Source of the DNA: Gemmatimonadales bacterium
GTDB taxonomy: Bacteria; Gemmatimonadota; Gemmatimonadetes; Gemmatimonadales; GWC2-71-9
Length of the DNA: 64,000 nt
Direction: 5' to 3'
Assembly (NCBI GenBank): GCA_036395695.1
Contig: DASWDA010000075.1
Location: forward strand, 13,441-77,440
The position numbers and the translations under genes were made by a program. Within the stretch, counting starts at the first letter, position 1, and every line of letters starts with the position of its first letter. The notes beneath the pieces are model-generated. The model worked only from the letters and a program-made list of their open reading frames with translations. It had not been told where the DNA came from and made no database searches. Positions 45,486 to 57,116 of this stretch are shown here, one piece after another.

Positions 45486-45731
45486 TTAGCAAGCCGGCCC
45501 GCACGGCGCAACGGTTACGCCCCATCCGCGGGGCTCGGCCCATTGCCTGACTCTGACTCGGAATTCAGAAACCGGGTCCCGATGACGAACGCGGGCGGCG
45601 AGACAGGCGAGCGGACCTTCGCGCTCGATGCGACACCATGTGACGGCGGTCTCCGGTAACGCGTCGAGCGCGTCACGTTCGAGGCGCGCGCCCTGGGTCG
45701 CGAGGACGACCACCACGGACTCGTACGGCAT
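45486..45731 (-). CDS. Hypothetical small protein (weak call)
   Basis: This is the only ORF filling the 278-nt gap between the MoeZ-like gene and lepB. The first half has G/C-rich third positions and the second half does not. I recognise no motif. Confidence 0.25.
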   Translation of the reverse strand: MPYESVVVVLATQGARLERDALDALPETAVTWCRIEREGPLACLAARVRHRDPVSEFRVRVRQWAEPRGWGVTVAPCGPAC

Positions 45732-45789: not shown

Positions 45790-46944
45790 TTAATAACGCG
45801 GCAGCGTCGGATCCACCTCCTCCTGCCACCGCAGGATCCCGCCCGTCAGGTTCGTGACGCGCGGGAATCCTGCCTCGGCGAGATGCGACGCGGCCGCCCG
45901 GCTGCGACTGCCGCCCTTACAGTAGACGACTACTTCCCTCTCGCGATCGAGTGTGTCGACGACATCGGGGAGGGTCGCCAGCGGGACGAGCCGCGCGCCC
46001 GGAATCCGCGCGATGTCCCACTCGAACTGCTCGCGCACGTCGAGCAGCTGCAGCGCCTCGCCCCGTGATAGCCGGCTCTGGAGTTCCCGGGGCGTGACCT
46101 CGACGAACCCACCCACCGCGCGTGGCTCCGCTTCGGCGGCGCGAACCCCGCAGAACTGCTCGTAATCGATGAGCGCTTGGATCTCGTGGGTGCCGCACGC
46201 GGGGCACGTGGGATCCTTGCGCACGTTGACGGTGCGGAACGTCATCCCGAGGGTGTCGATGAGGAGCAACCGTCCCCGCAGCGGCTCGCCGGCGCCGACG
46301 ATCAGCTTGATCGCCTCCGTGGCCTGAATCGTCCCCACCAGCCCGGGCAGGACCCCCAACACGCCACCCTCCGCGCAGCTGGGCACCAGGCCGGGCGGTG
46401 GCGGCTCTGGAAACAGACAGCGATAGCATGGTCCATCCGGCAGTGCGAACACCGACGCCTGCCCCTCGAACCGGAAGATGCTGCCGTACACGTTTGGCTT
46501 GCCCAGCAGCACACAGGCGTCGTTGACGAGATAGCGCGTCGCGAAGTTGTCGGTGCCGTCGACGACAATGTCGTACCCGCTGAGAATGTCGAGCGCGTTC
46601 TTCGAGGTCAGGGCCGTCTCGTAGGTCTCGAGCCGGACGTGCGGGTTCACATCGGCGATGCGCTCCCGCGCCGAGACCAGCTTGGGCCGACCAACGTCCT
46701 TCGTGCCGTGCAGGATCTGTCGCTGCAGGTTCGTGACGTCGACGTTGTCGAAGTCCACGAGGCCAAGGGTGCCGACGCCGGCCGCGGCGAGATAGAGCGC
46801 CGCGGGCGATCCGAGCCCGCCCGCGCCGATGAGCAGGACCCGAGCGGCCTTGAGCTTTTCCTGGCCCGGGACGCCGACATCGGGAAGGATGAGATGCCGG
46901 CTGTAGCGCACCAGCTCGGCCTGGACGAGCGTCGTCACGGTCAA
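45790..46944 (-). CDS. MoeB/ThiF-type adenylyltransferase fused to a rhodanese domain (MoeZ-like sulfur-carrier activating enzyme)
   Basis: VLLIGAGGLGSPAALYLAAAGVGTLGLVDFDNVDVTNLQRQ matches the adenylyltransferase core. CYRCLFPEPP...PSCAEGGVLG is present. The rhodanese tail has VVVYCKGGSRS. Confidence 0.85.
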   Translation of the reverse strand: MTVTTLVQAELVRYSRHLILPDVGVPGQEKLKAARVLLIGAGGLGSPAALYLAAAGVGTLGLVDFDNVDVTNLQRQILHGTKDVGRPKLVSARERIADVNPHVRLETYETALTSKNALDILSGYDIVVDGTDNFATRYLVNDACVLLGKPNVYGSIFRFEGQASVFALPDGPCYRCLFPEPPPPGLVPSCAEGGVLGVLPGLVGTIQATEAIKLIVGAGEPLRGRLLLIDTLGMTFRTVNVRKDPTCPACGTHEIQALIDYEQFCGVRAAEAEPRAVGGFVEVTPRELQSRLSRGEALQLLDVREQFEWDIARIPGARLVPLATLPDVVDTLDREREVVVYCKGGSRSRAAASHLAEAGFPRVTNLTGGILRWQEEVDPTLPRY

Positions 46945-47216
46945 CCTCCTGCGATCGCCGGGACGACGATGATCTCATCGCCGTCGCGCACGCTCGCCGC
47001 AAATCCGCCCTGGAGTCTGGCGTCGTCGTCGTTCACGTAAAAGGTCACGAAGGGATAGGGCTGACCGGCGGCGTCACGCAGCCGCGGGGCCAACCCCGGG
47101 AATCGGGCGGCGACGTCGGCGACGACGTCGCCCAGCGTCGATCCGTGTGCTTGGAGCGAACGCTGGCCGTCGGCCAACTTTGCGAGCACCGTGGGAAGTT
47201 GCAGCGTGATGCTCAT
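46941..47216 (-). CDS. CysO/MoaD/ThiS-family ubiquitin-like sulfur carrier protein (C-terminal GG)
   Basis: MSITLQLPTVLAKLADGQRSLQAHGSTLGDVV...FYVNDDDARLQGGFAASVRDGDEIIVVPAIAGG closely parallels my recollection of mycobacterial CysO. AGGAGA lies upstream of ATG 47216. ATGA overlaps occur on both sides. Confidence 0.8.
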   Translation of the reverse strand: MSITLQLPTVLAKLADGQRSLQAHGSTLGDVVADVAARFPGLAPRLRDAAGQPYPFVTFYVNDDDARLQGGFAASVRDGDEIIVVPAIAGG

Positions 47217-48187
47217 GATATCTCCTGACTGGTGACTGGCACGTGGTGCGTGGTGACTGCAGACACCGATGCACCCGGGACGGCACTCGAACATGTGATC
47301 AGCTCGGCCGCAATGCCGACGTCGCGCCACGCGGCGAGCATCGCCGTACCGACCGCAGCCGATCGCTCGCGCGGGGCGATCGCCACGATCGCGGAGCCGG
47401 CACCCGACAACGTCGCCCCGAACGCTCCGGCGCGCTGCCCGGCGGCGACAACGGCATCGTAACCGGGAATGCGCGCGCGTCGGAACGGCACGTGCAGCAG
47501 ATCGTCGAGCGCGGCGCCCAGGAGGGCGCCATCACCCGTCGCCAGACCCTGCACCAGTGCCGCGGCCCGGCTGGCCGCGACCACTGCATCGCTGTGGGGC
47601 AACGTGTGTGGCAGCGCGGCGCGCGCCGCTTTCGTGTCATTCGGAAATGGCGGCACCGCAATCAGCAGCTCGATCGCGGGCGAGACCCGCAGCGACGAAG
47701 AGACAAATCCGGCCTGCGTGTGGACGCTCAACACCGCACCCCCGTAAATCGCCGCCGCCACGTTATCGGGATGACCTTCGATCGTTGTAGCGATCTCGAG
47801 GATTTTGGCGCGAGACAGACCCAGCTCGAGCGCCGCGTCCGCCAGCATTGCGCCGGCCACGATCGCCGCCGCCGATGATCCGAGCCCACAGCCGACGGGA
47901 ATGTCCGAGGCAGCGTCGATTGTCACGCCCCCCCCGCCCCCCCCGCCCCCCCCCGTCCCCGTGGGCGATGCACCGCCCGCGGCGCAGGCGGCGCGAAAGC
48001 CGCGCGTGATGAGATCCTGGTCCGCCCGTACGCGGACGGTGCTCAACGTCCCGCGGCGACGGATCGAGATCCCGCTTCCCCCCAGCGTGACGGACGCGAC
48101 GAGCCAGCGGTCGACCGCGATGCCGATACAATCAAAGCCCGCGCCGAGATTGCTCGAGCTCGCCGGCACACGCACGCGCGCGGTCAT
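47213..48187 (-). CDS. thrB: Homoserine kinase (GHMP family) with an internal poly-Gly insertion
   Basis: VPASSSNLGAGFDCIG, and PVGCGLGSSAAAIVAG (GHMP motif II), and GATLSGAGSAIVA. It contains TGTGGGGGGGGGV. Confidence 0.85.
   Translation of the reverse strand: MTARVRVPASSSNLGAGFDCIGIAVDRWLVASVTLGGSGISIRRRGTLSTVRVRADQDLITRGFRAACAAGGASPTGTGGGGGGGGGVTIDAASDIPVGCGLGSSAAAIVAGAMLADAALELGLSRAKILEIATTIEGHPDNVAAAIYGGAVLSVHTQAGFVSSSLRVSPAIELLIAVPPFPNDTKAARAALPHTLPHSDAVVAASRAAALVQGLATGDGALLGAALDDLLHVPFRRARIPGYDAVVAAGQRAGAFGATLSGAGSAIVAIAPRERSAAVGTAMLAAWRDVGIAAELITCSSAVPGASVSAVTTHHVPVTSQEIS
47927..47953 (-). repeat. Perfect tandem repeat (GGGGGGGGC)x3 on the thrB coding strand
   Basis: The plus strand reads GCCCCCCCC three times and encodes nine consecutive Gly. 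The adjacent GGGG gives four or more G-runs. Confidence 0.9.
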
Positions 48188-49437
48188 GAGGCGTCCTTCA
48201 CGAGCGCGCGCACCTCGGCCACGCGCGCCGCGATGATGGGGGCCGCGGGCAACACCGGGGCCACGACGTCGACAGTCTTGAGTCCGTTTCCCGTGATGCA
48301 CAACACGACTTCGTCATCGGGTGAGAACCGGCCTTCGGCCGCCAACGCCAGCGCCGCGGCGACGGTGACACCGCCCGCGGTCTCGGTGAAGATCCCCGCC
48401 TCCTCCGCGAGCAGCCGAATCCCGGCGACGAGCTCCGCGTCCGACACCGCTGCGGCCCAGCCGCCCGATTCAAGAATCGCACGCTTGGCGAACAGGCCAT
48501 CGGCGGGATTCCCGATCGCAATCGAGCGGGCGATGGTGTGCGGCACGACCGGCTCGATGGCGTCGGCGTTGTCGCGCACGAGTCGCACGATCGGCGCGCA
48601 CCCCGCCGCTTGCGCGCCGAAGATCCGGGGGGCGCCTCCGCTGACCAGTCCGGCGGCGCTGAACTCCCGGAAACCCTTCCGAAGCTTGGTCACGAGTGAG
48701 CCGCCCGCCATCGGAGCAACCACCGCGGTCGGCAGCCGCCACCCCAGTTGCTCGGCGATCTCGAACGCCATCGTCTTCGACCCTTCGCCGTAGTAGCCGC
48801 GCAGGTTGACGTTCACGATGCCCCAGCTGAACAGGTCTGCCACCTGCGCGCACAGCCGATTCACGTCGTCGTAGTGGCCACGCACCCGCACCAGTCGTGC
48901 GCCAAACACCGCGGTCCCGACGATCTTGGCGACCTCGAGATCCTCCGGAATGAAGATCCAGGCCTTGAGCCCGGCGCGCGCCGCCTGCGCGGCGACGGCG
49001 TTTGCCAGATTGCCCGTCGAGGCACAGCCGATCGTGTCGAGCCCGAACGCGGCGGCCGCGTTGATCGCCGTCGCGACGACCCGGTCCTTGAACGACAGGG
49101 ATGGATGCGAGACCGCGTCGTTCTTGACCCAGACGCGCGCCACGCCGAGCCGCGCGGCGAGCCGCGGCGCCTCGACGAGCGGAGTGCCGCCGGTATCGAG
49201 CGACAGGACGGGCTCGCCGTCGAACGGCAGCCACTCGCGGTACCGCCAGAGCGACCAGGGACGCGCCGCGATCGCATCGCGCGTAGGGAGCACCCGTGCC
49301 GCATCGACAACCGGATCGAGGGGGCCGAGGCATTGCTCGCAGATCGCCACGGGAGCTGGCTGATGTAGCGTGCCGCACGCTCGGCACACCTGCGGCCGGG
49401 GCCGTAACGCCGCGGGCGGCGCCACGGTGGTCGTCAT
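48184..49437 (-). CDS. thrC: Threonine synthase-family PLP enzyme with an N-terminal Zn-ribbon
   Basis: CRACGTLHQPAPVAICEQCLG is a CxxC...CxxC ribbon. HPSLSFKDRV carries the PLP lysine. CASTGNLANAVAAQAA and ...LCITGNGLK are present. Confidence 0.8.
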   Translation of the reverse strand: MTTTVAPPAALRPRPQVCRACGTLHQPAPVAICEQCLGPLDPVVDAARVLPTRDAIAARPWSLWRYREWLPFDGEPVLSLDTGGTPLVEAPRLAARLGVARVWVKNDAVSHPSLSFKDRVVATAINAAAAFGLDTIGCASTGNLANAVAAQAARAGLKAWIFIPEDLEVAKIVGTAVFGARLVRVRGHYDDVNRLCAQVADLFSWGIVNVNLRGYYGEGSKTMAFEIAEQLGWRLPTAVVAPMAGGSLVTKLRKGFREFSAAGLVSGGAPRIFGAQAAGCAPIVRLVRDNADAIEPVVPHTIARSIAIGNPADGLFAKRAILESGGWAAAVSDAELVAGIRLLAEEAGIFTETAGGVTVAAALALAAEGRFSPDDEVVLCITGNGLKTVDVVAPVLPAAPIIAARVAEVRALVKDAS

Positions 49438-50324
49438 GGCGTCGCCCCCACTGCCGGTGCCGGCGTTTGCCGGGCCGCACGAATCAGCGCCTCATCGGCC
49501 GCGTCGATTTGATAGCAATGTTCCGGACCCGGGAAGACGCTGGCCCGGACGTCGCGCGCGTACTCGCTGAACGCACGCTCCACCTGCGCGCCCACCTCCG
49601 CGTACCGCCTCACAAACCGCGGCGCGATGTCGCCCACGAAGTTGCCGAGCATGTCGTGCGAGATGACGAGCTGCCCGTCCACGTGCGGACCGGCCCCGAT
49701 CCCATAGAGAAGCACTCCAACACGCTCGCGCACAAAGGCCGCGGTCTCGGCGGGAACCGCTTCCAGCAGAATCGAGAAGGCGCCGGCGCGCTCCAGCGCT
49801 TCGGCATCGCGCAGCAAGCGTTCGGCAGCGGCGAGGCATTTGCCCTGCACCCGGTAGCCACCGAGCTGCCCAATGCTTTGCGGCGTGAGGCCCAGGTGTC
49901 CCATCACCGCGATGCCGGCGTCCACCATGGCGCGGACGCGGCGTGCGACGCGGGTTCCCCCTTCACACTTCACCGCGTCGCAGCCGGCCGCTATGAAGGC
50001 ACCCGCACTGCGAATCGCCGTCTCGTCCGACGGCTGGTACGACAGGAACGGCAAATCGCCCACCACGAAGGCGTGCTTCGCGGCGCGCGTGACCGCTTTA
50101 ATGAAGACCAGCATTTCGTCGAGTCCGATTTGCAGCGTGCTCGGCAGGCCCAGCATCGTCATCGCCGCGGAATCGCCCACGAGAATCATGTCGACGCCCG
50201 CCCGGTCCGCGAATGTGGCCGTGGGGTAGTCGTAGGCCGTGACGAAGACGGCCTTCTCGTTGCGTGCCTTCAACCCGGCCAGGGTGGCGACGGTGACCTT
50301 ACGAACCGACATGGACGCCTCCAT
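49434..50324 (-). CDS. panB: 3-methyl-2-oxobutanoate hydroxymethyltransferase
   Basis: VFVTAYDYPTATFADRAGVDMILVGDSAAMTMLG...VVGDLPFLSYQ...VKCEGG. The alternative start is ATG 50312. Confidence 0.93.
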   Translation of the reverse strand: MEASMSVRKVTVATLAGLKARNEKAVFVTAYDYPTATFADRAGVDMILVGDSAAMTMLGLPSTLQIGLDEMLVFIKAVTRAAKHAFVVGDLPFLSYQPSDETAIRSAGAFIAAGCDAVKCEGGTRVARRVRAMVDAGIAVMGHLGLTPQSIGQLGGYRVQGKCLAAAERLLRDAEALERAGAFSILLEAVPAETAAFVRERVGVLLYGIGAGPHVDGQLVISHDMLGNFVGDIAPRFVRRYAEVGAQVERAFSEYARDVRASVFPGPEHCYQIDAADEALIRAARQTPAPAVGATP

Positions 50325-51516
50325 CGGTCAGAGAAGCGACCGCGAGGTCGCTGACAAATTCGCGGATCCGCTCGAGCGCGAGATCGAGATCGGCGGGCGA
50401 CACGGCGCACGACAGACGCAGATGGCCGGCGCCACCCGGTCCGAAGTCGGTGCCGGGCAGCACCGCCACACCGTAGTCGTCGAGCAGGCGGGCGGCGAGC
50501 TTGCGGGTCGAGAGCCCCGATCGCTCTTCGACCAGCCGCACGTCCGGGAACGCGTAGAACGCTCCCGCAGGCCGCGCGCAGCGGACGCCCGGAAGGCCGT
50601 TCAAGCCGTCGACCAGCCAATCCCTCCGGCGCTCGAACCGCGCCACCGCTGCGGTCACGGCATCCTGCGGCCCGGTGAGCGCGGCGACCCCCGCCAGCTG
50701 CACGAACGGCGGCGTACAAGACGTGCCGTTGACCACCAGCGTCGTCACGCGCTCGACCAGCGCCGCGGGCAGCACGCCGAAGCCCAGCCGCCAGCCGGTC
50801 ATGTTATAGGACTTCGAGAAGCTGTCCACGATGATGGTGCGCTCGAGCAGGTCCGGCAGGGCCGCGATGCTGTCCGAACGCCCATCGTACCGGATCCGGC
50901 CGTACACCTCGTCCGAGACCACGACGAGGTCGTGCCGCAACGCGAGCTGAGCGATCGCGTGCAGGGCATCCGTGGTCGCGACGCCGCCGGTGGGATTCCC
51001 AGGAAGATTCACGACCAGCGCGCGAGTGCGCGGGCCGATCAAAGGGGCGATGCGCTCAGCATCCAGCCCCCCCACTTCATCGAGCGGGTAGCGGACCGGG
51101 ACCGCCCCGGCGAACCGCACAACCGACGGATAGATCGGGAAACCGGGGTCCGGCACGAGCACCTCATCGCCCGCCTCGACCACGGCGAGGAGGGCGTAGA
51201 ACACCATCGGCTTGGCCCCCGGAACGACGACGACGTTCTCTGCCGACGCCCCCCGGACACCACGCCAGGGGAGCGATGCGGCAATCGCATCGCGCAAGGC
51301 GGGCAAGCCGGCCGGGTTCACATAACGCGTGTGGCCATCGTGCAGCGCGCGGACGCCTGCCTCGACCACGTGGGGCGGCGTTGCCCCGTCAGGCTCGCCG
51401 ATCTGGAGGTGAATCACGTGGCGACCGGCGGCCTCGAGGCGGCGTGCGGCCACCAACACGTCGAACGCGCCTTCGCCCGAGAGTGCATTGACTCGACTAG
51501 CAGGAACGACGGGCAT
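50299..51516 (-). CDS. Class I/II pyridoxal-phosphate aminotransferase (aspartate aminotransferase-like)
   Basis: Translation from ATG 51516 gives MPVVPASRVNALSGEGAFDVLVAARRLEAAGRHVIHLQIGEPDG...VVNLPGNPTG...DSFSKSYNMTGWRLG (PLP lysine context). Confidence 0.85.
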   Translation of the reverse strand: MPVVPASRVNALSGEGAFDVLVAARRLEAAGRHVIHLQIGEPDGATPPHVVEAGVRALHDGHTRYVNPAGLPALRDAIAASLPWRGVRGASAENVVVVPGAKPMVFYALLAVVEAGDEVLVPDPGFPIYPSVVRFAGAVPVRYPLDEVGGLDAERIAPLIGPRTRALVVNLPGNPTGGVATTDALHAIAQLALRHDLVVVSDEVYGRIRYDGRSDSIAALPDLLERTIIVDSFSKSYNMTGWRLGFGVLPAALVERVTTLVVNGTSCTPPFVQLAGVAALTGPQDAVTAAVARFERRRDWLVDGLNGLPGVRCARPAGAFYAFPDVRLVEERSGLSTRKLAARLLDDYGVAVLPGTDFGPGGAGHLRLSCAVSPADLDLALERIREFVSDLAVASLTDGGVHVGS

Positions 51517-51537
51517 GATCCCCCCACGGCCGGAACG

Positions 51538-51563
51538 AAAACGGCCGCTCAGCTGAGCGGCCG
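51538..51563 (-). terminator. Terminator-like or attenuator hairpin: perfect 22-nt palindrome followed by UUUU on the minus strand
   Basis: CGGCCGCTCAGCTGAGCGGCCG (51542-51563) is followed on the minus strand by TTTTCG. It lies about 25 nt upstream of the aminotransferase ATG. Confidence 0.5.
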
Positions 51564-51689
51564 CGGGAAGCGATTCCCTGAAACAATCATCGCCCGGACC
51601 AATAAAGCCGCGGGCGAGTCGCTTTTTAGCACCTTGTTTAACGTGGCGGCAATACGCGGCAAATGACCACGGGTCGACAGTTGTAAGGT

Positions 51690-51719
51690 ACTCTAGCCCC
51701 GCTGCACCGGCGCCGTCAA
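51690..51719 (-). promoter_or_regulatory. Sigma-70-type promoter candidate (minus strand) just after the ALDH stop
   Basis: The minus strand reads TTGACG, an 18-nt spacer, then TAGAGT. This predicts a leader of about 165 nt for the aminotransferase gene. Confidence 0.35.
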
Positions 51720-55790: not shown

Positions 55791-56454
55791 GCGATCTGAC
55801 CTGATACACCGGGCCATGGGGTTGGAGCGTACTCTGCATCAGGTCGACCTCCGTCACGGTGACCGTTGCATCGAAAGCGGTGCCGGTGAGTATCTCTTCG
55901 AGTCCTTTGAAGTCGCGCGATCGCGCATCGCGCGTGGCGCGCCCCAGTGTCACATGCGGCCGAAACGCCCGCGCTTCCGTGAGAAAGCCAAGCGGCGCGA
56001 ACGCCTGCTCGACGCCATGCTGCAGCAGCTCAAGGCCGGGATCGGGCGTCACGCCCGCCCACAGCACATGCGGGCGGTGGTAGTCGGGAAAGACGCCGAA
56101 GCCGCCGATCTGCAGCGTCAGCGGGCGCGGCTCAGGGCGCGAACCGGCGGCACGCTGCAGCGCCGCGACGAGGTCCGGCTCCCGTGTTTCCTCTACGTCG
56201 CCCAAAAACTTGAGACTCAAATGAATGTTCTCGGGACGCACCCACTTCACCGGAAGCTTTTCGCGTCGCTCGCGCAGGGGCGCGAGCGCGTCCCAGAGCT
56301 CCTGGCGCACGGCCGCAGGAAAGTTCAGGGCGACGAACGCTCTAACAGGCTCCCCCGGCGGTAGCCCTTCGGGTCGATCTCGACCTGCGCAAATCCCAAT
56401 GTCGTCAGATGCGCCGTGATGGCTGCCTGTCGCGCCTCGATCCACGAAACCCAT
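55774..56454 (-). CDS. thpR: RNA 2',3'-cyclic phosphodiesterase ThpR (2H/LigT family)
   Basis: There are two H-x-T/S-x motifs: IHLSLKFLG and PHVTLGRA. RAFVALNF is a typical N-terminal strand. The only canonical starts (ATG 56454, GTG 56445) create an overlap of about 130 nt with the upstream gene. Confidence 0.75.
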   Translation of the reverse strand: MGFVDRGATGSHHGASDDIGICAGRDRPEGLPPGEPVRAFVALNFPAAVRQELWDALAPLRERREKLPVKWVRPENIHLSLKFLGDVEETREPDLVAALQRAAGSRPEPRPLTLQIGGFGVFPDYHRPHVLWAGVTPDPGLELLQHGVEQAFAPLGFLTEARAFRPHVTLGRATRDARSRDFKGLEEILTGTAFDATVTVTEVDLMQSTLQPHGPVYQVRSHGRLS

Positions 56455-57116
56455 TGCGGCTCGACCTCGAGGCGCGCGCGGTCACCGAGGTGGCGGACTC
56501 GCAGATCGCCGGTCACGCCCAGCTCCCGCAAATACGCTTCTCCCGCCTCGACCTGTTTCAAGCGCGACGGCGTGATCGTGAGCCCGTACTGCACGCGGCT
56601 CGAGAGACACGGTGCCGCCGGCGCGTCCCAGGTCGGCAAACCCAGCTCCCGCGACCGAGCGCGGATCTGCGCCTTGGTGAGTCCCGCCTCGGCGAGGGGC
56701 GAGCGCACGCCCGCAGCAACGCCCGCCGCCTTCCCCGGCCGATGTTCGTGCAGATCGTCGGCGTTCGTGCCGTCGCAGACGACCGCAAGTCCGCGCTCGG
56801 CGGCGAGCGGCACGAGCCGGTGCCACAGCTCGGTCTTGCAGTAGAAGCAGCGGTTTGAGGGGTTCGCGAGATAGCTCGCGTCGTCGAGCTCGTGGGTCGC
56901 GATTTCCGTGAGCGGGATATCGAACTGTATCGCGACCTGACGGGCGACCTGCCACTGTGCGTCGGGATAGGAGGCGCTGCGACCGATCACCGCCAACATG
57001 CGGTCCCCGCCGAGCTCCTGCCGCATGATCACCGCGAGAAACGCCGAATCCACGCCGCCCGAATACCCAAGCAGGGCCGAAGGAAACTCGCGAACGAGGG
57101 CGCGGAGAGCCTGCAT
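56325..57116 (-). CDS. PP-loop ATP pyrophosphatase, LarE-like (TIGR00268-type)
   Basis: LLGYSGGVDSAFLA is the PP-loop (SGGxDS). CFYCKTELW and ...APCLSSRV are present, the latter being the Cys-containing loop seen in LarE-type proteins. Confidence 0.75.
   Translation of the reverse strand: MQALRALVREFPSALLGYSGGVDSAFLAVIMRQELGGDRMLAVIGRSASYPDAQWQVARQVAIQFDIPLTEIATHELDDASYLANPSNRCFYCKTELWHRLVPLAAERGLAVVCDGTNADDLHEHRPGKAAGVAAGVRSPLAEAGLTKAQIRARSRELGLPTWDAPAAPCLSSRVQYGLTITPSRLKQVEAGEAYLRELGVTGDLRVRHLGDRARLEVEPQWVSWIEARQAAITAHLTTLGFAQVEIDPKGYRRGSLLERSSP

Follow-up and report, generated by a model that had tools for sequence, protein, structure and literature searches.

A SAM-II riboswitch-headed operon in Gemmatimonadales probably encodes MetM/MetO-type homocysteine synthesis

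Does the threonine synthase-like gene of this Gemmatimonadales locus make threonine, or does its product form homocysteine from O-phosphohomoserine with sulfur borne by a small carrier protein? The initial annotation of the window (the whole 64-kb stretch analysed, whose numbering is used for all coordinates) had proposed a homocysteine-forming or bifunctional enzyme rather than a plain threonine synthase, and it pointed to MetM/MetO of Streptomyces and Thermus. This pathway is indeed published. As relayed by PMC12172450 and the GapMind 2026 preprint, homocysteine synthesis from O-phospho-L-homoserine by MetM/MetO was first described in 2024, in Streptomyces albulus (Hasebe et al. 2024, Appl Environ Microbiol 90:e01247-24). 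The preprint calls MetM 'often misannotated' as threonine synthase. We consider it very probable that the core of the operon described here encodes MetM/MetO-type homocysteine synthesis and that the operon is a methionine-branch unit repressed by SAM through a SAM-II riboswitch.

The four adjoining genes of the initial annotation are present, co-directional and on the minus strand at the positions it gave, as the open reading frames and domain scans agree (Table 1). They make up the distal end of an operon of six genes, in the order aminotransferase, panB, ThrC-like gene, thrB, CysO-like carrier gene and MoeZ-like gene. The unit counts six genes, not the four initially described, because the panB/ThrC-like junction is another ATGA overlap and the aminotransferase gene overlaps panB. 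The reading frames abut or overlap along the entire operon, and the ThrC-like, thrB and carrier genes are translationally coupled. ATGA overlaps had been claimed between all four genes; they are found at the ThrC-like/thrB and thrB/carrier junctions but not between the carrier and MoeZ-like genes. There, the downstream frame begins either with TTG at 46944 (a TTGA overlap) or with GTG at 46938, 3 nt past the stop. An AGGAGG Shine-Dalgarno sequence for the GTG start sits within the Gly-Gly codons of the carrier, and the MoeZ-like genes of relatives are annotated as the 382-aa GTG form; GTG is probably the start.

Table 1. Features of the operon and its leader (window numbering)
Feature	Coordinates	Strand	Basis or description
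Putative sigma-70-like promoter	51690..51719	-	Consensus scan; TTGACG-18 nt-TAGAGT, just 5' of the riboswitch
SAM-II (SAM_alpha, RF00521) aptamer	51604..51680	-	Rfam match in operon leader
Terminator-like hairpin	51531..51564	-	10 bp stem, 8 G-C pairs, then TTTCGTT; between aptamer and first gene
Class I/II PLP aminotransferase, AspC-like, 405 aa	50299..51516	-	NCBIfam matches; first operon gene
panB, 3-methyl-2-oxobutanoate (ketopantoate) hydroxymethyltransferase	49434..50324	-	TIGR00222, NF001452
MetM-like ThrC-family fold-type II PLP enzyme, 417 aa	48184..49437	-	PALP domain, TIGR00260, motifs, tree
thrB, homoserine kinase, GHMP kinase, 324 aa	47213..48187	-	TIGR00191
MetO/CysO-like ThiS-family carrier, 91 aa, ends ...AIAGG	46941..47216	-	PF02597
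MoeZ-like E1, ThiF plus C-terminal rhodanese (loop YCKGGSRS)	45790..46938	-	PF00899, PF00581

Ahead of the operon lie a riboswitch, a promoter-like site and a terminator-like hairpin, all missed by the initial annotation. The RF00521 match spans the full-length model (positions 1-79) and scores 40.5 bits, where the gathering score is 36, with E-values of 1.1e-5 over the whole window and 1e-7 in a local search. As with known SAM-II (metA-motif) riboswitches, the match lies above the gathering score, and here it heads a predicted methionine-biosynthesis operon; the family takes its name from Alphaproteobacteria, whereas the present host belongs to Gemmatimonadota. The consensus scan gave three promoter-like sites for the region (0.3 expected in shuffled sequence), and the -35 element TTGACG is kept in close relatives. 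The first start codon follows 88 nt after the aptamer, with no obvious Shine-Dalgarno sequestration and with the intrinsic-terminator-like hairpin in between. This hairpin appears in the centroid fold and is kept in three related lineages (L001, L090 and L088), with changes confined to the loop; L003 has a different hairpin plus a T-run immediately after the aptamer. The hairpin is likely to be the expression platform, and would act by attenuation. At low SAM the leader would be read through, and at high SAM the aptamer would fold and the downstream terminator would halt transcription.

The riboswitch match could be spurious, or the element could regulate the first gene only, leaving the rest expressed independently of SAM. 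We regard both as very improbable. The window score is just 4.5 bits over the gathering score, and the invariance of the P1 helix leaves the aptamer without covariation. However, SAM-II is also found by Rfam at the equivalent position in six related loci (39-55 bits), which makes seven independent matches, and the 60-nt aptamer core is nearly invariant over the seven lineages, even as the proteins of the flanking genes diverge by 5-30% or more. A simple scan found an internal promoter-like site at 50828-50801, a further point for this rival reading; against it stand the overlapping or abutting frames and the arrangement in L088, where the element is now directly 5' of panB and still accompanied by the same set of downstream genes.

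The ThrC-like protein is, as first described, a ThrC-family fold-type II PLP enzyme with an N-terminal Cys4 (CxxC...CxxC) zinc ribbon (C18, C21, C33 and C36); its PLP lysine is K117. It scores 254 bits with the TIGR00260 thrC model and so passes the equivalog cutoff of 167, which counts against a homocysteine-forming role, and 35 bits with the CysM model (cutoff 413). It is 48-52% identical to actinobacterial proteins (317-375 bits) and 35-39% identical to solved canonical threonine synthases (147-179 bits). A Streptomyces orthologue shares 34% identity with B. subtilis ThrC, and the preprint gives 33% for S. albulus MetM against that protein. The link to MetM was made through orthologues from Streptomyces species other than S. 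albulus and their genomic context. The phylogenetic placement that had been proposed as a check set the protein apart from canonical enzymes: in a neighbour-joining tree, the zinc-ribbon group that includes the window protein is separate from a clade made up of the four canonical bacterial ThrCs taken from the PDB. The node holding the zinc-ribbon group has 71% bootstrap, and the deep nodes are weak (6-31%), which also weighs against the homocysteine reading.

The canonical enzymes compared (T. thermophilus 1uim, A. aeolicus 2zsj, B. subtilis 6cgq and M. tuberculosis 2d1f) share with the window protein the fold, the PLP-lysine motif SFKDR, the predicted substrate O-phosphohomoserine and the adjacency of thrB. 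The window protein differs in its extra ribbon and its apparent SAM control, and canonical motifs are replaced: SFKDRGM by SFKDRVV, STGNT by STGNL, VNSVNPxRxEGQKT by VNVNLRGYYGEGSKT, PVGNAGN by PMAGGS, QAxGAAP by QAAGCAP and EPASA by ETAGG. In all eight motif states, SFKDRVV, STGNLA, PMAGGS, GCAP and ETAGG among them, the window protein agrees with the MetM-like group and departs from canonical ThrC. Positions L144, N211, Y216 and G245 align to T. thermophilus T88, S155, R160 and N188, residues that we take to hold the substrate/product phosphate and so to direct water addition.

The remaining three gene products were also much as the initial annotation had them. ThrB is a GHMP-domain homoserine kinase (TIGR00191, 204 bits against a cutoff of 168) with a poly-Gly tract of variable length. 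The carrier is a ThiS-family protein resembling mycobacterial CysO (PDB 3dwg_C, E = 1.2e-22, 43% identity), and it is 38-44% identical to the Streptomyces and Kitasatospora carriers encoded downstream of metM-like genes. The MoeB-rhodanese fusion has both its ThiF (E = 5e-86) and rhodanese (E = 1.9e-20) domains; its best NCBIfam match is MoeZ NF005902, though at 513 bits it stays under the equivalog cutoff of 647.

In all seven Gemmatimonadota lineages examined, SAM-II precedes a set made up of panB, the MetM-like gene, moeZ and the carrier gene. Gene order is shuffled in L095 (aminotransferase-panB-thrB-carrier-moeZ-metM) with gene content retained. The actinobacterial homologues are preceded by a SAM-I riboswitch in 13 of 13 cases tested, as is the homologue of L005, an unassigned metagenomic lineage; thus two riboswitch classes have converged on a single gene family. 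The enzyme gene of Streptomyces and Kitasatospora is directly followed by one for a 91-aa GG-ended carrier, which is the published metM-metO layout. More widely, ThiS-family genes follow the enzyme gene in many Actinobacteria, in Gemmatimonadota and in three further metagenomic lineages (L005, L092 and L093). Within 6 kb of the actinobacterial genes, thrB and moeZ are both absent. No Rfam riboswitch match was obtained for three lineages at a greater distance, which have the enzyme-carrier pair or, in L094, the enzyme together with a NIL-domain gene; this counts against the homocysteine reading.

An ordinary thrC-thrB threonine operon could instead stand beside an unrelated CysO/MoeZ pair that serves cysteine synthesis, with the CysM gene at another locus, or the making of molybdopterin or thio-cofactors. 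The thrB gene beside the enzyme gene fits such a pair too, and both proteins exceed their family cutoffs; the carrier is equally near to CysO and to the Streptomyces carriers, and MoeZ-type enzymes serve several carriers. We nevertheless give this arrangement very little credence. It would be senseless to place threonine synthesis under a SAM riboswitch, and the motifs of canonical ThrC have given way to others. Moreover, enzyme and carrier genes are linked in several phyla and stay so under shuffled gene order, and both are translationally coupled with thrB here. Because four independent lines agree (SAM-II/SAM-I control, identity, motif states and recurrent carrier linkage), the "threonine synthase" most likely belongs to the MetM type and forms homocysteine from O-phosphohomoserine with carrier-borne sulfur.

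Were it the sole ThrC-family protein of the cell, the enzyme might be bifunctional, turning O-phosphohomoserine into threonine with water and into homocysteine with the thiocarboxylate, and the operon would stand at the threonine/methionine branch point. The presence of thrB within the operon in five of seven Gemmatimonadota lineages speaks for this, as does the absence of a second thrC or thrB from the 64-kb window; if the genome has no other thrC or thrB, the MetM-like enzyme must make threonine too. A cyanobacterial homologue, 51.6% identical to MetM, is reported to show weak threonine synthase activity, and threonine deaminase activity, in vitro (PMC12172450), which also weighs against the homocysteine reading. 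We judge bifunctionality unlikely, since a cell that repressed its sole thrB and thrC by SAM would be starved of threonine and the four presumed phosphate-holding positions are all substituted. It is also at odds with the operons of L003 and L096, which have no thrB; that gene must therefore exist elsewhere in those genomes.

The MetM/MetO-type reading suggests the following route. ThrB, by family membership, would phosphorylate L-homoserine to O-phosphohomoserine. By analogy with MoeZ/CysO, the ThiF domain of the MoeZ-like enzyme would adenylate the C-terminal Gly-Gly of the carrier, and a persulfide on the rhodanese-domain cysteine would turn the carrier into a thiocarboxylate. The ThrC-like enzyme, as proposed by analogy with S. 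albulus MetM/MetO, would eliminate phosphate from O-phosphohomoserine, and the thiocarboxylate would attack C-gamma in place of the water addition at C-beta by threonine synthase. Hydrolysis would release homocysteine, possibly aided by a JAMM hydrolase encoded elsewhere; the methylation of homocysteine to methionine would also be encoded elsewhere. The initial annotation saw no CysM or JAMM gene in the window, and we agree: tblastn found no second PALP, ThiS or ThiF paralogue there, and no ORF of the window has a JAMM motif. Both families are also absent from the Pfam tables of syntenic relatives. The lack of a JAMM/Mec hydrolase in the window is a further point against the homocysteine reading.

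The locus is probably a new member, from Gemmatimonadota, of the already known MetM/MetO pathway; added here are thrB, moeZ, panB, the aminotransferase and the other riboswitch class. In so far as the two sources relay the S. albulus system, it shares the ThrC-homologous PLP enzyme co-transcribed with a CysO-like, ThiS-family, GG-ended carrier, the MoeZ-dependent activation, the upstream SAM riboswitch and the 'threonine synthase' annotation. Compared with Streptomyces, the present locus has SAM-II in place of SAM-I, about 48-50% identity, a different phylum, thrB and moeZ within the operon, and co-regulated panB and aminotransferase genes. Some Streptomyces carriers end in GGC, whereas the carrier here ends exactly at GG and so would need no Mec trimming. 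The CysM/CysO/MoeZ/Mec cysteine synthesis of M. tuberculosis (PDB 3dwg) is alike in its carrier family, its type of E1-rhodanese activator and a fold-type II PLP enzyme that takes a protein thiocarboxylate and a phosphorylated hydroxy-amino acid, as predicted here. It differs in its PLP enzyme, which is of the CysK/CysM branch, whereas the one here is of the ThrC branch and has no Mec/JAMM gene adjacent. Because the predicted substrate is O-phosphohomoserine, the reaction would be a gamma-replacement, compared with the beta-replacement of O-phosphoserine by CysM. In the HcyS/HcyF/HcyD/MetY route of Wolinella succinogenes, a ThiS-like carrier thiocarboxylate likewise gives the sulfur of homocysteine, but the route uses O-acetylhomoserine, the fold-type I enzyme MetY and a JAMM protease.

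Judged from sequence, the aminotransferase and PanB are co-regulated with the homocysteine genes. PanB exceeds both of its family cutoffs (TIGR00222, 267 bits against 208; NF001452, 325 against 272), retains the catalytic motifs, has M. tuberculosis PanB (1oy0, E = 2.7e-66) as its best PDB match and lies within the SAM-II unit in all seven Gemmatimonadota lineages. The best NCBIfam matches of the aminotransferase are generic or aspartate aminotransferases, all under their cutoffs. Its gene adjoins panB in five of the seven lineages and in L088 lies outside the riboswitch unit.

The four genes proposed in the initial annotation are all present on the minus strand, as seen from their open reading frames and domain matches (see the table of coordinates). 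The transcription unit reaches further upstream and also takes in panB and an aminotransferase gene. From their positions and the gene junctions, a promoter-like site, the SAM-II aptamer and a terminator-like hairpin come first in the unit, and they are followed in turn by the genes for the aminotransferase, PanB, the ThrC-like enzyme, ThrB, the carrier and the MoeZ-like protein. ATGA overlaps had been claimed at all three internal junctions of the four genes. Two of these stand, including the overlap that joins the carrier gene to thrB, but the carrier/moeZ junction more likely uses a GTG start; this codon lies 3 nt past the carrier stop, and an AGGAGG sequence is found inside the carrier Gly-Gly codons. 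In relatives, the moeZ-like product is called as a 382-aa form.

Coordinates of the features discussed in the text (positions in the window unless a locus handle is given)
Feature	Position	Strand	Remarks
Promoter-like sequence	51719-51690	-	TTGACG-18 nt-TAGAGT; precedes aptamer
SAM-II aptamer	51604-51680	-	RF00521; Rfam 40.5 bits against a gathering score of 36
Terminator-like hairpin	51564-51541	-	10 bp, G+C-rich, T-rich tail; after aptamer
Aminotransferase gene	50299-51516	-	Overlaps panB; first ATG at 51516
panB	49434-50324	-	ATGA overlap with ThrC-like gene
ThrC-like PLP enzyme	48184-49437	-	417 aa; PALP PF00291, E = 3.9e-63; TIGR00260, 254 bits against a cutoff of 167
thrB, homoserine kinase	47213-48187	-	GHMP kinase; TIGR00191, 204 bits against a cutoff of 168
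ThiS-family carrier	46941-47216	-	91 aa, C-terminus AIAGG; PF02597, E = 4.1e-11; PDB 3dwg_C (M. tuberculosis CysO), E = 1.2e-22
ThiF-rhodanese fusion (moeZ-like)	45790-46938	-	PF00899 + PF00581; top NCBIfam match MoeZ
Cys280 codon	48600-48602		Motif GAQAxGCxP
Poly-Gly tract of thrB	47928-47960		C-runs on the + strand; thrB codons for GTGGGGGGGGGV
Hairpin in metM-like coding sequence	48974-48958		Terminator-like
81-aa ORF	45486-45731	-	Downstream of moeZ; no family match
LarE-type gene	56325-57116	-	TIGR00268, 268 bits against a cutoff of 150
Reordered six-gene cluster	L095:2083-8275		Gemmatimonadaceae relative
SAM-II aptamer of a close relative	L088:5692-5768		Between aminotransferase and panB
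PhdYeFM antitoxin / PIN toxin pair	L001:13660-14303		Gemmatimonadota relative
NIL-domain gene (PF09383)	L093:3826-4062		Distant metagenomic lineage
NIL-domain gene (PF09383)	L094:7960-8535		Distant metagenomic lineage

The SAM-II aptamer, which the initial annotation had not included, is the single Rfam match in the whole window and sits in the gap that separates the aminotransferase gene from a gene for an aldehyde dehydrogenase. The covariance model match is above the gathering score and lies upstream of a methionine gene, as expected for a SAM-II riboswitch. Binding of SAM would favour the terminator. The same riboswitch matched upstream of the cluster (39-55 bits) in all six related lineages. 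The core of the aptamer hardly varies across the seven lineages, while their encoded proteins diverge by 5-30% or more, which argues for selection on the RNA. The Rfam consensus structure line marks P1 alone, and this helix is invariant in the seven sequences, so that the covariation that can be counted is zero. A literature search for SAM-II riboswitches in Gemmatimonadota returned no paper. A further terminator-like hairpin within the metM-like coding sequence was set aside as a chance occurrence (three such sites against 3.2 expected).

The gene contexts in Gemmatimonadota were obtained by contig look-ups of homologues (n=12), which gave six further lineages. Two of them, L001 and L090, with enzymes 91% and 88% identical to that of the window, have the same six-gene order. 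In L088 (95%), the aptamer does not precede the aminotransferase gene but separates it from panB; thus, the leader has moved relative to the first gene. L003 and L096 (75% and 76%) share a shorter layout of SAM-II, panB, enzyme, carrier and moeZ, without thrB and the aminotransferase. L095 (80%) keeps all six genes in a changed order: SAM-II, aminotransferase, panB, thrB, carrier, moeZ and enzyme. Homologues recorded under an organism name put the source of the window in the Gemmatimonadales. Wherever the window protein and its Gemmatimonadota relatives are named in public records, they are called ‘threonine synthase’.

The ThrC-like enzyme is a fold-type II PLP enzyme of the PF00291 family, homologous to ThrC. 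The PLP lysine is K117 of the SFKDR motif, which aligns with K61 of T. thermophilus ThrC. The additional N-terminal CxxC...CxxC element described in the initial annotation was confirmed as C18-x2-C21...C33-x2-C36. In pairwise comparisons, the enzyme is 48-52% identical to the actinobacterial genes described below (317-375 bits) and 35-39% identical to the solved ThrCs from T. thermophilus, A. aeolicus, B. subtilis and M. tuberculosis (147-179 bits). By these measures it is closer to genes in the published metM layout than to canonical ThrC. A Streptomyces orthologue shares 34% identity with B. subtilis ThrC; for S. albulus MetM, an independent preprint gives 33% to this ThrC. In a neighbor-joining tree (100 bootstraps), the four bacterial PDB ThrCs cluster on their own, away from the zinc-ribbon group to which the window protein belongs (71% support for the node holding this group), but a well-supported MetM clade within that group was not resolved (6-31% support). 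Because of these weak nodes, motif states and genomic context were used instead.

Active-site inspection gave a clearer result. The canonical ThrC motifs SFKDRGM, STGNT, NPxRxEGQKT, GNAGN and EPAS are all replaced in the window protein. Eight of eight group-specific motif states are common to this protein and the MetM-like group, and canonical ThrC differs at each of them.

Motif states of canonical ThrC compared with the window protein and the MetM-like group
Canonical ThrC	Window protein and MetM-like group
SFKDRGM	SFKDRVV
STGNT	STGNLA
VNSVNPxRxEGQKT	VNVNLRGYYGEGSKT
PVGNAGN	PMAGGS
QAxGAAP	GAQAAGCAP
EPASA	ETAGG

The enzyme passes the TIGR00260 equivalog cutoff for canonical ThrC. The model is unlikely to tell MetM and ThrC apart, since Streptomyces-type metM orthologues carry the same core motifs. 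According to GapMind, MetM is often misannotated as threonine synthase.

Four residues of T. thermophilus ThrC, T88, S155, R160 and N188, correspond to L144, N211, Y216 and G245 in the window enzyme. We take these four residues to be the ones that hold the substrate/product phosphate, which steers water to C-beta. In ThrC, the phosphate is reportedly used in this way in what has been called product-assisted catalysis. A literature search on the T. thermophilus ThrC residue numbers yielded no paper, and a separate one on product-assisted catalysis yielded two papers, both without residue detail. If the assumed roles are right, loss of the phosphate-retention site would fit an enzyme that no longer adds water at C-beta but carries out a gamma-replacement with a thiocarboxylate. 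A cysteine residue (Cys280) is invariant in a ten-sequence alignment of MetM-like proteins, and its position is occupied by Ala or Ser in canonical ThrCs. This residue could be catalytic or take part in sulfur handling.

MetM has been described as a homocysteine synthase of Streptomyces that uses O-phospho-L-homoserine (Hasebe et al. 2024, cited in PMC12172450). According to the same source, the sulfur carrier MetO is encoded beside MetM, and a SAM riboswitch lies upstream in S. albulus (PMC12172450). Orthologues from other Streptomyces species served as proxies for S. albulus MetM. Species-representative genomes were scanned with a Micromonosporaceae representative (49% identical to the window enzyme) as seed, and matches were ranked by similarity to the first query sequence. 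The scan yielded at least 80 loci, with only Actinobacteria among the matches listed. Among these matches, the carrier gene directly follows the enzyme gene in Streptomyces, Kitasatospora, Streptosporangium, Nocardioides and Kribbella, among others. The actinobacterial carriers are 91 aa long in most loci and end in AGG, in some cases with one to about 27 further residues. A SAM-I riboswitch was found immediately upstream in 12 of the 12 scanned loci tested and at the Micromonosporaceae locus. This arrangement of SAM-I, enzyme and carrier is the published metM-metO layout. No thrB, moeZ or panB gene was seen within 6 kb of the metM-like genes among the matches listed. The window differs from the S. 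albulus type in having SAM-II in place of SAM-I, and in its operon carrying thrB, moeZ, panB and the aminotransferase gene.

The pairing of enzyme and carrier is also seen in other metagenomic lineages. The unassigned lineage L005, whose enzyme is 55% identical to that of the window, has SAM-I upstream and a carrier gene downstream. Three more distant lineages have the enzyme followed by a ThiS-family gene (L092), by a ThiS-family gene and a NIL-domain gene (L093), or accompanied by a NIL-domain gene (L094); an Rfam riboswitch search of these three gave no match. The NIL-domain genes adjoin the MetM-like gene or the carrier. This domain is otherwise tied to methionine transporters and to archaeal homocysteine synthesis.

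Both the enzyme-carrier linkage and control by SAM riboswitches are therefore conserved across phyla. In the window, the enzyme gene lies in one operon with the gene for a MetO-like carrier with a C-terminal Gly-Gly and stands behind a predicted SAM riboswitch, of the SAM-II and not the SAM-I class. The idea of a plain thrC-thrB pair that happens to lie beside unrelated genes for CysO and MoeZ conflicts with the SAM control, with the replacement of the canonical ThrC motifs and with the conserved linkage of enzyme and carrier. The initial annotation had also considered that the enzyme might be bifunctional. Such an enzyme, as the sole ThrC of its genome, is the less likely reading: threonine synthesis would then be shut down by SAM, and the operons of L003 and L096 are without thrB. 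The suggestion that the ThrC-like gene encodes a homocysteine-forming, MetM-like enzyme is thus supported by regulation, motifs, carrier linkage and sequence identity. Two classes of SAM riboswitch have been recruited to one enzyme family in different phyla, and this constitutes evidence of function from regulation, independent of sequence similarity.

The carrier belongs to the ThiS family and ends in GG with no extension. The strong resemblance to CysO noted initially was upheld by the match to PDB 3dwg_C, and the carrier is 43% identical to CysO compared with 38-44% to the Streptomyces carriers. It is thus equidistant from CysO and MetO; naming it as either from sequence was rejected, and its identity is set by genomic context only. 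Some Streptomyces carriers end in GGC, unlike that of the window. Among the loci whose carrier C-termini were compared, GGC ends occur in L058, L070, L071, L078, L084 and L087, and longer tails in L005, L055 and L069. Carriers with residues past Gly-Gly would need proteolytic maturation by a Mec/JAMM protease. The Gemmatimonadota carriers all end exactly at GG, and trimming by Mec is not needed for the window carrier.

The fourth gene had been assigned to the MoeZ type. The ThiF-rhodanese architecture with its catalytic Cys agrees with this, and the translation shows GAGGLGSP, the CxxC pairs and the YCKGGSRS loop. The score against NF005902 (513 bits) is below the cutoff of 647, so that a MoeZ architecture is established but equivalog membership is not. 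NF006444, annotated as MoeB, was passed (471 against 449).

Taken together, these genes suggest a reaction in which O-phosphohomoserine and the thiocarboxylated carrier (carrier-COSH) yield homocysteine. ThrB would supply O-phosphohomoserine, the MoeZ-like enzyme would adenylate and thiocarboxylate the carrier, and the ThrC-like enzyme would perform a gamma-replacement to give homocysteine. A JAMM hydrolase, if needed to free an amide adduct, would be encoded elsewhere.

The presence of panB in the operon is unexplained, as no standard link between pantoate synthesis and SAM accounts for it. It lies within the SAM-II unit in seven of seven Gemmatimonadota lineages, including the one with shuffled order, and is accompanied by the aminotransferase gene and thrB in most of them. 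It would be switched on at low SAM, whereas competition for methylene-THF predicts the opposite. The protein looks canonical by every measure applied: it scores above the TIGR00222 cutoff, M. tuberculosis PanB is its top match in the PDB (1oy0, E = 2.7e-66), and it keeps the motifs VGDS, DLPF, VKxEGG and HxGxTPQS. A comparison of the active site with three reference structures, a set too small to be informative, brought out a few clade-specific substitutions (DLPFG to DLPFL and VKLEGG to VKCEGG). One could imagine that the six genes form a linear route from pyruvate and a one-carbon unit to homocysteine that bypasses aspartate. In such a route, PanB would hydroxymethylate pyruvate to 4-hydroxy-2-oxobutanoate, the aminotransferase would convert this to L-homoserine, ThrB would then form O-phosphohomoserine, and MetM with MetO and MoeZ would complete the synthesis. 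This would explain the constancy of panB, the accompanying aminotransferase and thrB, and expression of PanB at low SAM. The only precedent for homoserine chemistry by PanB appears to be a promiscuous activity in an engineered strain: a delta-hom strain supplied with a formaldehyde source was rescued in part when P. putida PanB was overexpressed (bioRxiv 10.1101/2025.02.17.638773). We regard the route as very improbable, given a PanB that looks fully canonical and an association seen in one phylum only, where inherited gene order is possible. The conserved co-regulation of panB and the aminotransferase gene is nonetheless a concrete lead that can be tested.

A MetM/MetO kind of system has been known since 2024, and the Gemmatimonadota locus is a new occurrence that extends the pathway to another phylum. 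The operon is a SAM-regulated module complete in itself: the kinase that forms the substrate and the E1 enzyme that activates the carrier are both encoded in it, which makes it a convenient unit for reconstitution. With the ‘threonine synthase’ label, metabolic reconstructions would miss this methionine route and might over-count threonine synthases. The main interest lies in correcting this systematic misannotation, in the convergent riboswitch evidence and in the panB lead.

Several features near or within the operon are also worth recording. The LarE-type gene, some 5 kb upstream of the operon, encodes an ATP-dependent sacrificial sulfur transferase; this is another sulfur-transfer protein, and no operon link is evident. 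Downstream of moeZ, the position of the 81-aa ORF is a variable spot: close relatives have a PhdYeFM antitoxin/PIN toxin pair at or near it. ThrB is the fastest-evolving protein of the cluster, with 44-79% identity where the MetM-like enzyme has 80-95%. A poly-Gly loop in it is encoded by an imperfect (GGGGGGGGC)n tract, and this loop varies from 0 to 9 Gly in close relatives, always in frame.
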